A model generated the notes under the pieces. That model had not been told where the DNA came from. It saw only the letters and a list, made by a program, of their open reading frames with translations, and did no database searches. Shown piece after piece: positions 6,298 to 39,505 of a stretch of 64,000 nt of DNA. Origin of the DNA: Eubacteriales bacterium (lineage in GTDB: Bacteria; Bacillota; Clostridia; Oscillospirales; CAG-382); assembly GCA_028702135.1 (NCBI GenBank), contig JAQVPJ010000010.1, positions 3,114 through 67,113 on the forward strand, read 5' to 3'. A program made the position numbers and the translations under genes. Positions within the stretch are counted from its first letter, which is position 1. The number at the start of each line of letters is the position of its first letter.

Positions 6298-6454
6298 ATA
6301 TTTTCCTCCAGTTTCATAGATTCAATACATTATATGAAACGTATATGAATGAGTTACTTCCCCCGACGGATAAATTATTTTTGTTCAGAGAAAAAAACAC
6401 TTGACAAACAGAAAAAAACGTAATATTTTATATTAAAAGTTAATACAATAAACT

Positions 6455-6722
6455 GTTGAAACAGAGAAGTATCTTAATTGAGGTTATCAGAGAGTTTTGG
6501 TTTGGTGCGACAAAACATCGGATTTTAAGTGAATGGACTGTTGAGGGCGGATGCAAAATGAGATTTTTCAGAGTAGTTTCCGACGCGTTTCCAGCGTGAC
6601 TGTGAGGAAGTATGCATGTACTTCGCTGAGGTAGCAGTATACAATCGGTATACCTACGTAATTGGGTGGCAACACGGTAACACATATCGTCCCAAAAGAG
6701 GATGTGTTACGGTGATTTTTTT
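6455..6722 (+). promoter_or_regulatory. T-box leader RNA, probable Trp (UGG) specifier, ending in an intrinsic terminator
   Basis: Stem I elements are AGAGAAGTA, the AG bulge CAGAGAG and the distal loop GGTTTGGTGCGA. The specifier-loop context is GTGAA-TGG-A at 6531-6537. The T-box sequence AATTGGGTGGCAACACGG lies at 6660-6677. The terminator pairs cggtaacacat with atgtgttacgg and is followed by gaTTTTTTT (6675-6722). A TTGACA sits at 6401. Confidence 0.7.
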
Positions 6723-6817: not shown

Positions 6818-7807
6818 TTAGTATATTAAAGGTTCATGATCTGATTCATAAACATAATCCGAGGATAGGAAAATCAAATCTTCATCAATCTGCTTCAGTT
6901 TGTATTCAATCACATGCGATTTAATTGTCTCCGCCCAGTCGGCATAAAACTGTATGGTAACCGTAGTTATACCGTTCTCTGTTTTTTCATCGATTACTTC
7001 GTATGAGTACATAATTCCTCCGCATCTATGTACTGAATACAAACCGTCACATAAGTAATCATCGCTCGGAATTATATCTTTTAAACCGGATATTTTATAG
7101 GCATATTCCTGAAATTCATCTAAAGTGAATTCACTTTTTGACCATAAAACATATTCGGTCAAAGATGAAATATAGTCTTCCTTTTGTTCTCCGGTTAATG
7201 AAGCCGGATCGGAGTAATCACATATCTTGTAAAAAACGTCCCATTCAAATAACGCGTATTGTGCAGCAGATGCTTCATCATAAATCTTATTATAAGTTGT
7301 AAAATAGGTATCATAGGGCGATTCAACTAAAACGGTGTGTTCACCAACCGGCATGGTATCCAAACCGCTTTCTATTATATCGAATGAAAAAATAACAGTG
7401 TAATCGTCTCTCGGATAAATTGTGTACGCACCGATTTTGAGTGTTTTGTAATCATCAAGAACACCTTTTTCAAGACAACCTTTTTCTTCCATTACTGCAG
7501 TGTCACCGTTCAAAAATGCTTTTATCAATAAGTATCTTTCGTCTTCTTTTGTAAGTCCGAGCTGTTCGATATCCTCTATGTCGTTTATTGATAAATTTGT
7601 TTTGCTTGAATCCTCACTTGATACCGAAACCTCATTCTCGCTTTTTTCAAAAGAGGATTCCATCGTGCTTTCATCATTCTCCGATAGATTATCCGATGCT
7701 TCTGACGACCCGCTTGAATTATTATCCGGTTCGACACAGGAGTAAAACGCCGCAATCAAAAACAATGATATAAAAAGGAGGATTGCTTTTTTCATTATCA
7801 TACTCAC
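6818..7807 (-). CDS. Putative lipoprotein of unknown function
   Basis: It has a signal peptide with a lipobox-like AAFYSC, then a low-complexity S/E/N linker, then a ~230-aa globular domain with no recognised motif. Confidence 0.6.
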   Translation of the reverse strand: MSMIMKKAILLFISLFLIAAFYSCVEPDNNSSGSSEASDNLSENDESTMESSFEKSENEVSVSSEDSSKTNLSINDIEDIEQLGLTKEDERYLLIKAFLNGDTAVMEEKGCLEKGVLDDYKTLKIGAYTIYPRDDYTVIFSFDIIESGLDTMPVGEHTVLVESPYDTYFTTYNKIYDEASAAQYALFEWDVFYKICDYSDPASLTGEQKEDYISSLTEYVLWSKSEFTLDEFQEYAYKISGLKDIIPSDDYLCDGLYSVHRCGGIMYSYEVIDEKTENGITTVTIQFYADWAETIKSHVIEYKLKQIDEDLIFLSSDYVYESDHEPLIY

Positions 7808-7844
7808 CTTTCTTGGAAAATACTGCTTTATATCAATAGTGGAG

Positions 7845-7896
7845 AAAAAAACCGAAAAAGTTTCACCCCGAAGAATTTTTTTATATTTATTTTTAC
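7845..7896 (+). promoter_or_regulatory. Copy A of a shared upstream element (CCGAA-N11-CCGAA plus a T-rich tail)
   Basis: aaaaaaaccgaaaaagtttcaccccgaagaatttttttatatttatttttac, about 17 nt upstream of TTGACA-17-TATTAT for the lipase-like gene. It is about 75% identical to 9348-9398. Confidence 0.4.
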
Positions 7897-7972
7897 TCGT
7901 TAAAATAAAACATTGACAATTTCAATATCTATCATTATTATTGAAGTATTACAAATACTTGAAGGAAACAAG

Positions 7973-9316
7973 ATGAAGCATATAAAAAGATTTATCAATA
8001 TAATATTCGTTACTCTGCTTGCCAACTTCGTTTTACTCGCTAAAACGCTTAGCATTTTTTCAGTGGTTAATATAATTGGTTTTTACACGCTCACTTTAAT
8101 GCTCTTTGTATTGCTTAATGTATTTCCGCGATATAAGACTTCAAAACCCATCAGGCAGGGAATAATGCTTGACGGGTATGAGTTGGTTCTGCTTTCTGCA
8201 TTTACGTTTACAATAAATACAATACTTAATATCTATGTCGGCATATGTTTTGTACCCGAAAAAATCAGTTGGGTAACTTTTATAATTAATTGTATACTTT
8301 GTATTATATCAGGAGCTATTTTGATTATAAACGGCTTAATACGAATCTATACTACTTCTGTTCAATTAGGAATAAAATGGCGGCTGATGTTCGCATTTCT
8401 CTGTTGGTTTCCCATTGTTAATATTGTTCTACTTTGGAAACTTTGCAGAATTGTCCGTGATGAATATGACTTTGAAACACAAAAGCTTGAGAATAATTAT
8501 GTCAGAAAAGAGAACGAACTTTGCAAAACGAAATATCCGCTTTTGCTAATCCATGGGGTGTTTTTCCGTGACAGAGTATATTTTAATTACTGGGGTAGAA
8601 TTCCGGGTGAGTTGATAAGAAACGGTGCTGTTATTTATTACGGAAATCATCAATCTGCAGCAACTGTGGAGAACAGCGCTATCGAACTAAAAAGCCGAAT
8701 TACACAAATAATCGAAGAAACGGGATGCGAAAAGCTGAATATAATCGCACATTCAAAGGGTGGTCTTGATGCAAGAACTGCGATTTCATGTTATGGGATG
8801 GATCAATATGTCGCTTCACTGACAACAATCAATACACCGCACAGAGGATGCGGTTATGCCGATTATCTGCTGCAAAAAGCGCCTAAATGTATTTTGAATT
8901 TTATTACAAAGAGTTATAACTCTGCCTTGAAGAAATTGGGTGACAAAAACCCCGATTTTTTCGGTGCGGTAAACAGTCTTACAGAAAAAAGCTGTTCGGC
9001 TATCAACAAAAAAGCAATTGATAAGGACAATGTGTATTATCAGAGCTTTACTTCAATAATGAACCGCTGGTCAAGCGCAAAATTCCCTTTAAATATTACA
9101 TATCTATTGATTCGTCATTTTAACAAACAAAACGATGGACTTGTATCGGTTGAATCCGCAAAATGGGGCAGTCGCTTTAATATTATAACAACGGACAGTA
9201 AAAGAGGTATTTCCCACGCCGATGTTATTGATTTGTATAGGGAAAATATCAATCAATTTGATGTCAGGGAATTCTATGTTGATATTGTAAAGGACTTAAA
9301 AGAACGAAACTTATAA
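7973..9316 (+). CDS. Membrane-anchored alpha/beta-hydrolase (lipase/esterase-like)
   Basis: The N-terminal ~170 aa contain 4-5 TM helices. The C-terminal domain has the nucleophile elbow IIAHSKGGLD (GxSxG-type) and LLIHGVF (oxyanion region). The start at the MKHIKRF ATG follows the RBS aagga. Confidence 0.7.
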   Translation: MKHIKRFINIIFVTLLANFVLLAKTLSIFSVVNIIGFYTLTLMLFVLLNVFPRYKTSKPIRQGIMLDGYELVLLSAFTFTINTILNIYVGICFVPEKISWVTFIINCILCIISGAILIINGLIRIYTTSVQLGIKWRLMFAFLCWFPIVNIVLLWKLCRIVRDEYDFETQKLENNYVRKENELCKTKYPLLLIHGVFFRDRVYFNYWGRIPGELIRNGAVIYYGNHQSAATVENSAIELKSRITQIIEETGCEKLNIIAHSKGGLDARTAISCYGMDQYVASLTTINTPHRGCGYADYLLQKAPKCILNFITKSYNSALKKLGDKNPDFFGAVNSLTEKSCSAINKKAIDKDNVYYQSFTSIMNRWSSAKFPLNITYLLIRHFNKQNDGLVSVESAKWGSRFNIITTDSKRGISHADVIDLYRENINQFDVREFYVDIVKDLKERNL

Positions 9317-9347
9317 AAAACTGCTGTTTTAAAATGCAATCATACAT

Positions 9348-9398
9348 AAAAAACCGAAAAAATTCTTTTCCGAATGAAATTTTTTTATTTATTTTTAC
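9348..9398 (+). promoter_or_regulatory. Copy B of the shared upstream element
   Basis: aaaaaaccgaaaaaattcttttccgaatgaaatttttttatttatttttac. It lies upstream of TTGAAT-16-(tga)TATAAT for the GH20-like gene and has the same 16-nt CCGAA-to-CCGAA register as copy A. Confidence 0.4.
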
Positions 9399-25496: not shown

Positions 25497-26855
25497 ATGT
25501 CTGAAAGAATGGACGCGGTAATGAAGCCGTTTAGGGAAAATGAGGATTTTGTGCGGGAGAGAATAAATTACGGCATAGAACTCTACCGCAAGGGCTACAA
25601 TACGATAAGGTTTACCGACAAAGAGGGAAATCCGGTTACAAATGTAAAATTCAGCATTAAGCTGAAAAAGCACGATTACAAGTTCGGATGCAATATTTTC
25701 ATGCTTGACGAGTTTGAAAACGAAGATAAGAACGCCGAGTACCGAAAGCTATTCGGGGATACTTTTAATTACGCGACTGCTCCGTTTTACTGGAGGGATC
25801 TTGAGCCGGAAAAGGGAAAACCCCGTTACGACAAGTTCAGTCAAAAAGTTTACCGCCGTCCCGCACCTGATCTCGTACTCGAATACTGCGAGGAAAAAAA
25901 CATTGATGTAAAGGCGCACTGCATAGTTTACGACGCTTTTTCGCCCGACTGGCTTCCGCGAGAGGTGCCTCTTATAAAAAAAGAGTACGACAAGCATATG
26001 GCGGAGCTGAGCGCAAGGTATTCTGCGCGTATCGATGATTGGGAAATTATCAACGAAACTTTAAACTGGGAGATGTACGGCTATTCGCGTCTGAAGACCT
26101 CTGCATTTTTTCAGGAGGCGGATTACGAGACATGGAGCTACTTCGCCGCACGAAGAAACTTCCCTATAAATAATCTTTTGATAAATGCCGGCCCCTGCGA
26201 GGCGTTTTCGGACAGGCTTACCCGTTCGCATTATTATTATCAGCTTGAGTCGCTCGCATCGAAAGGTGTACATTATGACGGTATAGGAATGCAGGCGCAT
26301 ATTTTCTGCGACCGTAAGCATGAAGCGGATTTTATAAGCAAGTATTATAATCCCGTAAAAATGTATGATGTATTCGACGCCTATGAAAAATTCGGTTCGC
26401 CGATTCAGATATCGGAGCTGACCATACCGTCATACAACGGCGGTGTTGAGGATGAAGAGGTTCAGGCGGAGGAACTGAAAACACTTTACAGCCTTTGGTT
26501 TGCTCACAGAGCGACCGATTCTATCGTTTACTGGAATCTTGTCGACGGATACTCTTATGTTCCGGGTGGCGGTAAGGACACGCTGGGCGACCTGAATGCT
26601 GGCGAAAACATTTACGGCGGCGGGTTGATTCGTTTCGATATGACTCCAAAACCGGCTTTTCTGATGCTGAGAAACCTGATCAAAAACGAATGGTATACCG
26701 AGCTTGACTTGAATACGGGCGATTGCGACAGAGCGAAGTTTAAAGGCTTTTTCGGCATTTACGACCTTACATACATATATAACGGCAGGGAAGAACATAC
26801 CGAGTTTCACCTCGATAAGAGGAGCGACCTTGAGCATATTATTGTTTGCGACTAA
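25497..26855 (+). CDS. Cytoplasmic GH10-like glycoside hydrolase (xylanase family fold)
   Basis: No signal peptide. WRDLEPEKG; a WEIINET motif that looks like the acid/base region (compare WDVVNE); GIGMQAH; and an ISELTIPS motif that looks like the nucleophile region (compare ITELD). Confidence 0.6.
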   Translation: MSERMDAVMKPFRENEDFVRERINYGIELYRKGYNTIRFTDKEGNPVTNVKFSIKLKKHDYKFGCNIFMLDEFENEDKNAEYRKLFGDTFNYATAPFYWRDLEPEKGKPRYDKFSQKVYRRPAPDLVLEYCEEKNIDVKAHCIVYDAFSPDWLPREVPLIKKEYDKHMAELSARYSARIDDWEIINETLNWEMYGYSRLKTSAFFQEADYETWSYFAARRNFPINNLLINAGPCEAFSDRLTRSHYYYQLESLASKGVHYDGIGMQAHIFCDRKHEADFISKYYNPVKMYDVFDAYEKFGSPIQISELTIPSYNGGVEDEEVQAEELKTLYSLWFAHRATDSIVYWNLVDGYSYVPGGGKDTLGDLNAGENIYGGGLIRFDMTPKPAFLMLRNLIKNEWYTELDLNTGDCDRAKFKGFFGIYDLTYIYNGREEHTEFHLDKRSDLEHIIVCD

Positions 26856-27002
26856 AGCAGAACAGATATCTATATTAATAAAATAACCCCAAACAGATAT
26901 CCACGCTCCGACTTATCTGGAGCGTGGATATATGATTATTGGGTAAAATGCACAAAAATATATAAAACCGATAAAAATATTTGTTTCGTCCCACAAAAAC
27001 AC

Positions 27003-27031
27003 TTGACTTTTTTTAGTATATACTATATAAT
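27003..27031 (+). promoter_or_regulatory. Near-consensus sigma-A promoter with no downstream annotated gene
   Basis: TTGACT (27003-27008), 17 nt, TATAAT (27026-27031). Confidence 0.6.
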
Positions 27032-27037
27032 ATAGAC

Positions 27038-27372
27038 ATAGGAAACAGGGAGCAGTACGCCGGATTTTGTCGGTATGCAAAAGAAGGGGGGCGAGTCCGT
27101 TGGCAGACGAAATTCCACAGCCTTGCGATAATGCATGCGAAAAGAACGTGGAACTTAAAACGGGCTGCGTTTTCGTTTATCGGGAGCTGCACCAATAAAA
27201 AACCAAGCCTTATCAGGCAAAAGGATGCTTCTGATCGTAAAATATATACGTAAAAAACCGCCGGTCAGATGCTGATTATCAAGGGTTAAATTATATGCGT
27301 TGCACTCGCCGCTGAAATAGTATGGGTTATTGCAGGCTGTCAAAGTATAAAGGAAACAGCTTTTTTTCTCAC
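27038..27372 (+). ncRNA. Candidate structured non-coding transcript, family not recognised
   Basis: The segment starts after the promoter above and is GC-richer than neighbouring spacers. It contains several hairpins: ccgg/ucgg at 27061-27074, aaaacg/cgtttt at 27157-27173, and gcttctgatcg/cggtcagatgc at 27227-27270. It ends in aggctgt...acagctt followed by TTTTTT (27334-27367). No plus-strand ORF of 60 aa or more is present. Confidence 0.3.
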
Positions 27373-27511
27373 AAAAATAGATACTTAATTTATTATAGAG
27401 AGCTGCTCCGTTTCTTGGCTATTGACGAAAAAGTGGATGATGGTGAGCTAAAAAGCGTGACTGCGGTATTCTATATCGCAAAAAACATATAGCATTATTT
27501 TACAAAAGAAT

Positions 27512-27550
27512 AAAACCACTTATCTTTGCATACAAAGGTAAGTGGCTTTT
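27512..27550. terminator. Bidirectional terminator downstream of the GT2 gene
   Basis: ccacttatctttg pairs with caaaggtaagtgg. The hairpin is flanked by AAAA on one side and TTTT on the other. Confidence 0.7.
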
Positions 27551-27569
27551 TATTACAGTATTTTTTGGC

Positions 27570-28511
27570 TTATTTTAAATATGTTTCTATTATATAACGC
27601 GGTCTGTGCTTTGATTCCATATAGGTTTTTCCTATATATTCGCCGACAATACCGGTAGATAGGAACTGAAAACCGAAAAACGCACATGCCAATGCCGTAT
27701 AAAAAATTTTGTCTCCGAATTCTCTGCCGCATAAGAATAAAACAAAGAGAGTCAAAAGCATGCAGATACCCGCAAATAGAGACAATGCGCCGACAAAGGA
27801 GATCATTTTTATCGGCTTTACGGAAAAGGATGTTATCCCGTCCCATGCGAACGAAAGCATCTTTTTAAGAGGATATTTTGATTCTCCGGCAAAGCGTTTT
27901 TCCCTTTTGTAGGATACCGTGGTGCTTTTGAATCCGATAAGCGGTACAATACCTCTTAAAAACAAATTTACTTCACTAAATTTCTCCATACTCTCAAGTG
28001 CGCGTTTTGACATAAGCCTGTAATCGGCGTGATTGTAAACTGTTTCGACACCCATACAACTCATCAGCTTGTAAAAAAGAAGCGCTGTGCTTTTTTTAAA
28101 AAAGGAATCAGTCTTACGGGAACTCCTGACTCCGTATACAACCTCACAACCTTCTTCATACCTCAAGAGCATTTCGTCGATAGCGTCGGTATCATCCTGT
28201 AAATCCGCATCGAGTGAGATTGCAGTATCGCAATGCTCTTTTACGGTCATCAGACCGGCAAGAAGTGCATTCTGGTGGCCCTTGTTCCTTGACAGCTTTA
28301 TTCCCTGAAAAACAGGGTTTTGTCCGTGAAGGCCCTCGATAATATTCCAGGTATCATCCTTTGAGCCATCGTCAACGAATACGATCCTGCTCTCGGGAGA
28401 AATCCTGTTTTCTACGATAAGGTCGCTTACCTTTTTCAAGAGCCTTTTTGAAGTCTCGGGCAGAACCTCCTGCTCGTTATAACATGGAACAACTAAATAC
28501 AGCTTGTTCAT
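27570..28511 (-). CDS. GT2 polyprenyl-phosphate glycosyltransferase (GtrB/CsbB-like)
   Basis: YLVVPCYNEQEVL, FVDDGSKDDT, DXD as SLDADLQDD, and two C-terminal TM helices, over ~313 aa. Confidence 0.85.
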   Translation of the reverse strand: MNKLYLVVPCYNEQEVLPETSKRLLKKVSDLIVENRISPESRIVFVDDGSKDDTWNIIEGLHGQNPVFQGIKLSRNKGHQNALLAGLMTVKEHCDTAISLDADLQDDTDAIDEMLLRYEEGCEVVYGVRSSRKTDSFFKKSTALLFYKLMSCMGVETVYNHADYRLMSKRALESMEKFSEVNLFLRGIVPLIGFKSTTVSYKREKRFAGESKYPLKKMLSFAWDGITSFSVKPIKMISFVGALSLFAGICMLLTLFVLFLCGREFGDKIFYTALACAFFGFQFLSTGIVGEYIGKTYMESKHRPRYIIETYLK

Positions 28512-39329: not shown

Positions 39330-39505
39330 AAAAGCGTTCGTTGCGGCAACGCTGTGAAAGTGTATTTGCCGAACGTAAGCCTCGCCTCATGGCAAGCGAT
39401 CCGACTTTAATAAACTCCGGCGAAAAAAATTTCGTCGTTTTTTATTGTTTACGGTAATGGCGGTTGCATCGGATTTTCACCGAAATTCTCTTAACCATGT
39501 GCGAA
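39330..39505 (-). promoter_or_regulatory. Cobalamin riboswitch (compact form) with a terminator expression platform
   Basis: Minus-strand reading gives cATGGTTAAGAGAATTTCGGTGAAAATCCGATGCAACCGCCATTACCGTAAAC ... AAGTCGGATCGCTTGCCATGag. P1 pairs CATGG with CCATG (39388-39499). The GGTGAAAATCC core and a B12-box-like AGTCGGAtcgcTTGCC are present. A downstream hairpin agcgtt/aacgct followed by TTTT lies at 39333-39353. Confidence 0.75.

Follow-up and report, generated by a model that had tools for sequence, protein, structure and literature searches.

To our knowledge, bacterial RNAs of several hundred nucleotides (nt) with complex conserved folds are few. They comprise ribosomal RNA, RNase P, transfer-messenger RNA (tmRNA), group I and group II introns, OLE, GOLLD, ROOL, HEARO and raiA. 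Each earlier large structured bacterial RNA pointed to unexpected biochemistry or assemblies. The raiA motif RNA (RF03072) and similar orphan RNAs of Bacillota are stand-alone units with their own promoter and terminator. Their fold has several helices and includes unpaired nucleotides of high conservation; they occur in Gram-positive anaerobes and have no obligatory protein partner gene. The locus described here, likewise an orphan, resembles the raiA motif RNA in these respects. It occupies positions 26856-27569 of a 64,000-nt stretch (the window) of contig JAQVPJ010000010.1 from an uncultured Eubacteriales bacterium of the class Clostridia. From comparison of its sequence with those of two homologues, we consider it likely that a new large structured non-coding RNA, very narrowly distributed, is encoded here as a gene in its own right.

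The 714 nt of the locus hold no start-codon open reading frame (ORF) longer than 62 amino acids and no conserved ORF, in agreement with a preliminary description of this DNA that called the gap gene-free. That description left a novel structured RNA, an orphan cis-regulator and a decayed gene as options, and comparative evidence supports the first of these, as the promoter, core sequence and terminator are retained in two homologues and so, through compensatory changes, are the long-range helices. When all 164 species genomes of the family were searched with BLAST, one real match came up, on MGOY01000021.1 of Clostridiales bacterium GWF2_38_85 (G032), which belongs to a different genus (BLAST E = 6e-7; 143 bits with the covariance model). 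The other homologue lies on a Logan contig of a sister species (L085; 84% GH10 identity) that was found by walking relatives of the GH10 protein encoded next to the locus. It scores 97 bits (E = 5e-22) with the core model R1 and is placed directly 3' of the GH10 gene, where a gap of 858 nt is free of genes. Between the genera, 64% of the core is identical and the flanking DNA is unalignable. The element is known from three species of one family, and the three copies have in common the promoter, a closing helix (P1), the core sequence, a long-range helix of ~20 bp, the topology of an inner domain, and a terminator on the same strand.

A sigma-70/SigA-type promoter, TTGACT-17-TATAAT, is found at 27003-27031 on the plus strand, where the preliminary description had placed it. 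It scores 11/12 in the promoter scan, and the promoters of both homologues score 12/12. It ends 7-10 nt ahead of P1 in all three loci. The GC content is 0.42-0.52 across 27000-27150, just past the promoter, versus 0.24-0.35 in the flanks, and the stretch is indeed richer in GC than the surrounding spacers, as had been noted. A strong intrinsic terminator follows on the same strand 500-590 nt downstream in all three loci. In the window it spans 27516-27551 (plus strand) and consists of a 13-bp stem (27516-27545) followed by T5. The sister species carries a near-identical terminator with one compensatory pair. Because it is kept there even though the downstream gene encodes a Zn-ribbon protein and not GT2, the terminator is assigned to the RNA. 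Transcription is predicted to start at about 27038, and we infer a transcription unit that would extend from ~27038 to ~27551, from a near-consensus housekeeping-sigma promoter to an intrinsic terminator. The preliminary description ended the unit earlier, at a hairpin followed by T7 (27334-27372, plus strand), and on this point it has to be corrected. That hairpin has a weak stem of 5-6 bp with a 15-nt loop, is missed by the terminator scan and is absent from both homologues. The true 3' features are 27402-27414 and 27516-27551. Between them lies a variable tail (27415-27515, plus strand) with a 7-bp hairpin (27462-27480), of which only the last ~20 nt are conserved with the sister species.

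All helices of the proposed core are on the plus strand. The long-range helices P1 and P3 were derived by hand from comparison of the three sequences. P1 joins the first bases of the RNA to a strand ~360 nt downstream and closes a core of about 375-380 nt. Its 5' side (27042-27056) is made of P1a, GAAAC (27042-46), and P1b, GGAGCAGU (27049-56), and these pair with GCUGCUCC GUUUC at 27402-27414. Across the three species P1a (27042-46/27410-14) reads GAAAC/GUUUC, GAGAC/GUUUC and GAGAU/GUCUC, while P1b (27049-56/27402-09) has one C-G to U-A change. Pairing in P1 is kept in 3/3 sequences through C-G to U-A and A-U to G-C/G-U changes. Inside P1 there is a variable 5' hairpin, CCGG...UCGG (27057-27078), which grows to ~115 nt with extra hairpins in G032. 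The next helix is P2, in which AGAA (27082-27085) pairs with UUCU (27366-27369); the sequences and the minimum free energy (MFE) fold agree on this pairing. UUCU lies immediately past the T-run that had been taken for the end of the unit, and in the MFE fold the T-run extends P2 by G-U pairs with a G-run. The most conserved stretch, GGGGGGCGAGUCCGUUGGCAGACGAAAUUCC (27086-27116), includes the small hairpin P2.1 (GUC/GAC, 27095-27108) and is the backbone of models R1 and R2.

Helix P3 (~20 bp) pairs ACAGCCUUGCGAUAAUGCAUGC (27117-27138) with GUAUGGGUUAUUGCAGGCUGU (27320-27340). Its sequence is divergent, and yet the number of paired positions out of 22 is 20, 18 and 20 in the three species. At least 8 positions show double compensatory changes, position 6 being C-G, U-A and A-U in turn, and a one-base bulge shifts along the helix among species. 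The idea of a switch in which the 3' strand of P3 alternates with an ACAGC further downstream to make a terminator was dropped, because the sister species lacks both the repeat and the U-run. P3 encloses hairpin P4 (27143-27173), with the conserved loop GAACUUAAAACGGGC, and an inner domain (27174-27319). In this domain an irregular helix, P5, closes a junction that carries two hairpins, one short (27207-27218) and one long and variable (27230-27269); the domain ends with CUGAAAUA (27312-27319). The sequence inside P3 has diverged, and independent MFE folds give one topology in 3/3 species, in which the P4 hairpin precedes the irregular helix and its junction with the two hairpins. Conserved unpaired sequence is concentrated at four sites, as GGGnGCGAGUCC...CGAnAU ahead of P3, as GAAnA past P3, in the P4 loop (GAACUUAAAAYGGRC), and as CUGAAAUA before the 3' strand of P3. 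The comparison of the three sequences shows that the predicted gene boundaries, the core and the compensated long-range helices are conserved on the promoter strand. A conserved secondary structure with compensatory changes in P3 and P1 is what is expected of a structured RNA.

Folding statistics were obtained with RNAalifold on MAFFT alignments, compared with column shuffles. The two-sequence alignment gives -40.05 kcal/mol versus -15.7 +/- 3.7 for the shuffles (z = -6.6, 0/200), and z = -2.0 on the reverse strand. The three-sequence alignment gives -46.4 versus -14.4 +/- 3.5 (z = -9.2, 0/150). For the single sequence, the 525-nt unit at 27036-27560 has z = -3.1, and in this fold 27402-27417 is paired with the very start of the transcript. 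These numbers bear on the possibility that the locus is a non-functional spacer, its similarity and apparent helices being due to shared ancestry and chance. Such a spacer would fit the fact that only three sequences are known and that the element is absent from close relatives, and is hence not essential. It would not explain a core that stays 64% identical between genera amid flanks that cannot be aligned, nor the z of -9.2 against column shuffles, nor the retained promoters and terminators. We regard the spacer as a very improbable explanation, third in rank among four rivals.

Several observations weigh against an RNA gene. Positions 27036-27375, which correspond to the ~330-nt stretch credited with stable hairpins in the preliminary description, fold no better than shuffles when folded alone (z = -0.64). 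The reverse strand of the three-sequence alignment also reaches z = -6.2, which leaves the promoter, the terminator and the G-U pairs to decide the strand. The evidence base is three sequences, two of them from sister species, and this rules out covariation statistics of the R-scape type. The structures given by RNAalifold were in part fitted to the data, and the MFE fold of G032 favors local alternatives over P1 and P3. P2 is invariant and hence carries no covariation information. Positions 27161-27174 can pair in two ways. With 27143-51 (P4), 83% of cells are paired and there are 2 double changes. With 27087-99, a helix we call Px that would be a pseudoknot relative to P3, 90% are paired and all changes are one-sided. 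Neither pairing is decisively supported. Finally, the element is absent from five species of the same genus and from the sister species of G032. The RNA is taken to be dispensable or accessory because of this patchy presence.

A coding origin, from a protein gene in decay or from a small-protein gene that escaped annotation, was also considered. A 56-codon ORF (27322-27492, plus strand) is predicted by gene callers in 11 contigs, and the core is spanned by a K/R-rich frame that lacks a start codon. Both frames exist as previously listed, but the K/R-rich frame (27017-27253) is 78 codons long and not ~70, and it begins inside the promoter. The 56-codon ORF has no ribosome-binding site (RBS), overlaps P3 and P1 and is spurious. 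The ATGs equivalent to its start are followed by stops after 19 codons in L085 and after 3 codons in G032. Its product has no Pfam match and forms a one-member cluster among 15 billion proteins, with no relative at 90% identity. Whichever two sequences are compared, mismatches fall equally on the three codon phases (p = 0.35-0.91), and six-frame comparison with G032 finds equally weak similarity in all frames, with stops in each. Neither codon-periodic substitution nor a conserved open frame is seen, and the protein-like conservation that the preliminary description named as a refutation did not appear. A coding origin is the least probable of the four rivals, and we give it hardly any weight.

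The neighborhood of the locus bears on a cis-acting role. The 714-nt gap is bordered upstream by a GH10-family gene (25497-26855, plus strand) and downstream by a convergent GT2 gene (27570-28511, minus strand). Two plus-strand hairpin terminators came from the scan. One is the terminator of the RNA (27516-27545), and the other is a perfect 14-bp hairpin without a T-run (26897-26931) located 3' of the GH10 gene, which probably marks the end of the upstream operon and lies outside the RNA. L085 has a canonical terminator at the matching relative position, and the GH10 operon end in the window may be leaky because its hairpin lacks a T-run. A cis-acting or antisense regulator of a neighbor could work by regulated read-through past the terminator of the RNA into the convergent gene, or it could be processed from an extended 3' end of the GH10 operon. 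In 3/3 loci a minus-strand gene faces the RNA and ends within 20-60 nt of its terminator, the RNA lies directly 3' of the same GH10 gene in two of the three, and 27161-27174 has two conserved pairings that exclude each other, as in a switch. Yet the convergent genes are unrelated (GT2 in the window, a Zn-ribbon protein in L085, CotH in G032), and in G032 both neighbors differ from those of the window, the divergent one encoding a 243-aa protein. A consensus promoter of its own, distinct from the end of the GH10 operon, precedes the element, there is no plus-strand gene downstream to regulate, no known aptamer matches, and the weak internal terminator is not conserved. A regulator of a neighboring gene is the foremost of the four rivals and still an unlikely one.

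A few other features of the neighborhoods were noted. In L085, positions 7218-9383 encode two proteins, a Zn-ribbon protein of 121 aa (minus strand) and one of 539 aa that has sigma-70 regions 2 and 4. The pair sits between the RNA and a GT2/GT-C pair and looks like an inserted sigma/anti-sigma-like module. In G032, the 470-nt spacer 5' of the RNA promoter contains ~180 nt that are GC-richer and ORF-less (L003 1950-2130) and may be a gene fragment. The 714 nt of the window are 100% identical in 17 contigs of the same species from other samples. As all are identical over the locus, these contigs are uninformative on strain variation. The species is present in PRJNA260163 and in samples related to it.

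The RNA element is single-copy in the genome. Covariance-model and BLAST searches covered all 164 genomes of the family, 401 of the order and 399 of the class, as well as 39 relatives with lax filters, and gave no further copy; one 30-bit match inside murF was rejected. Synteny walks were equally negative for GH10 relatives at 77-69% identity, for GT2 relatives (including the same-genus genome with the closest GT2) and for the CotH relatives of G032. BLAST against phages and plasmids found promoter look-alikes only. The viral collection had no match to a strict or a relaxed pattern, and 400 order genomes had none to the relaxed pattern. The strict pattern recovered G032 and one chance Planctomycetota match in GTDB genomes, and the G032 contig again plus four chance matches in JGI metagenomes. 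The sister-species copy would fail this pattern, and homologues may have been missed in both scans. For this reason the claim of rarity holds for the genomes searched.

This distribution has to be set against a non-autonomous mobile element or its relic, in which P1 would be terminal inverted repeats and the patchiness would come from transposition or horizontal transfer. A 13-bp interrupted inverted repeat does flank ~375 nt. The element is patchy, being known from three species and missing from congeners, it has a different genomic context in G032, and integrase fragments occupy the post-GH10 site in other relatives. A mobile element would hardly account for a single copy in the genome with no transposase gene nearby at the three loci, for a conserved promoter that lies outside the repeat and a terminator 100 nt past it that travels along, or for internal nested helices that covary, which inverted-repeat termini leave unexplained. 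Phage, plasmid and viral collections contain no matches. Mobility is quite improbable in our judgment and comes second among the rivals. The integrase remnants themselves are phage-integrase gene fragments that lie directly 3' of GH10, in the place of the RNA, in two relatives with 69% GH10 identity (L093 6889-7068 and L094 6464-7068). The genes following GH10 vary from locus to locus in the other GH10 relatives examined.

Each of the four rivals accounts for less of the evidence than an RNA gene does, and even together we believe them to be rather unlikely. The comparison of the three species gives the following picture. P1 closes the core, and inside it the short helix P2 and P3 nest around a hairpin whose loop, GAACUUAAAA, is invariant and around a conserved strand rich in purines, GGGnGCGAGUCC... 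Enclosed by P3 is the branched inner domain, whose sequence is free to vary while its topology is kept. If the locus is an RNA gene, the RNA would be made, be stable and act in trans as a folded particle. Its conserved unpaired nucleotides would probably form a tertiary contact or a site for binding of a protein or small ligand. The paired ends may protect the RNA from exonucleases, and the ~100-nt tail may be trimmed off. A bolder and tentative proposal, to which we give a minor but real chance, is that the RNA founds a new class with a ~380-nt core and a 515-590-nt primary transcript, limited to one small clade of anaerobic Clostridia that are uncultured. In such a class the invariant junction nucleotides GCGAGUCC, GAACUUAAAA and CUGAAAUA might form a pseudoknotted active or binding site (for a ligand or a protein partner, or with ribozyme activity), and the alternative pairings of 27161-27174 might be a conformational switch. 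The very narrow distribution limits the general importance of the candidate. It also illustrates lineage-specific large RNAs that are missed by surveys needing many homologues. The candidate offers a structural hypothesis, clear gene boundaries and three natural variants, and with these in hand direct synthesis and probing are possible although the hosts are uncultured.

Comparison with described RNA families was carried out with Rfam 15 (4227 covariance models) at the gathering threshold. A scan of the whole window assigned no family to the locus. The sole gathering-level match in the 64-kb window is a T-box leader at 6447-6697 on the plus strand (106.6 bits versus a 93-bit cut-off). A sub-threshold AdoCbl-II riboswitch match was seen at 39386-39501 on the minus strand (21.9 bits versus a 36.5-bit cut-off, E = 0.023). 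Permissive scans, with E<=10 allowed for the copy in the window and E up to 1 for its two homologues, returned hairpin and terminator noise of at most 28 bits, far below the cut-offs; the matches listed resembled microRNA and small-RNA hairpins. The earlier statement that the RNA matches neither tmRNA, RNase P, 6S RNA nor a riboswitch therefore stands, even at E<=10. The genome encodes its tmRNA as a single copy on another contig, with the tag AKKNVALAA according to ARAGORN, which gives none at the locus. Its 6S RNA (RF00013) is at C3:21341-21578 (53.5 bits, above the cut-off), and the locus has no 6S score. An RNase P-like match lies at C38:68246-68578 (E = 5.5e-11), below the cut-off of RF00011 (type-B), RF00010 not having been run; G032 also has an RNase P-like match below the RF00011 cut-off. 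The locus itself has no RNase P score and carries GCGAGUCC where the P4 core of RNase P would be GGAAAGUCC. Since the tmRNA, the RNase P-like match and the 6S RNA are located elsewhere in the genome, the RNA at this locus is not one of these housekeeping RNAs.

The locus does not behave as a riboswitch or cis-leader either. It matches no aptamer family, and the next downstream genes are on the opposite strand in 3/3 loci. The preliminary description saw a loose resemblance to the yybP-ykoY (Mn2+) riboswitch (RF00080), and the short strings GGGAGCAGUA and UUGGCAGAC do recall its conserved loops. There is no match to this family even at E<=10, however; GGGAGCAG of the locus forms the 5' side of P1 and is not constant among the homologues, and there is no downstream gene to regulate. 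The likeness to the raiA motif RNA is one of organization: there is no match in sequence or structure, and the RNA described here is about twice as long and known from 3 species, versus thousands. OLE, ROOL and GOLLD (RF01071, RF03087 and RF01998) also belong to the 400-600 nt class, have nested long-range helices around conserved junctions, and occur in Clostridia and anaerobic metagenomes. In contrast to these RNAs, the present one has no Rfam match and far narrower conservation. No oapA/ybzG-type partner gene, as for OLE, and no prophage or tRNA context, as for ROOL and GOLLD, is present at the three loci. Compared with 6S RNA, it is twice as long and has a branched inner domain, and the genome has a separate 6S RNA. 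It nevertheless shares with 6S RNA the paired 5' and 3' ends that form a closing stem, a rod-like nested architecture, a strong housekeeping-type promoter, and an asymmetric internal region that holds the most strongly conserved bases.
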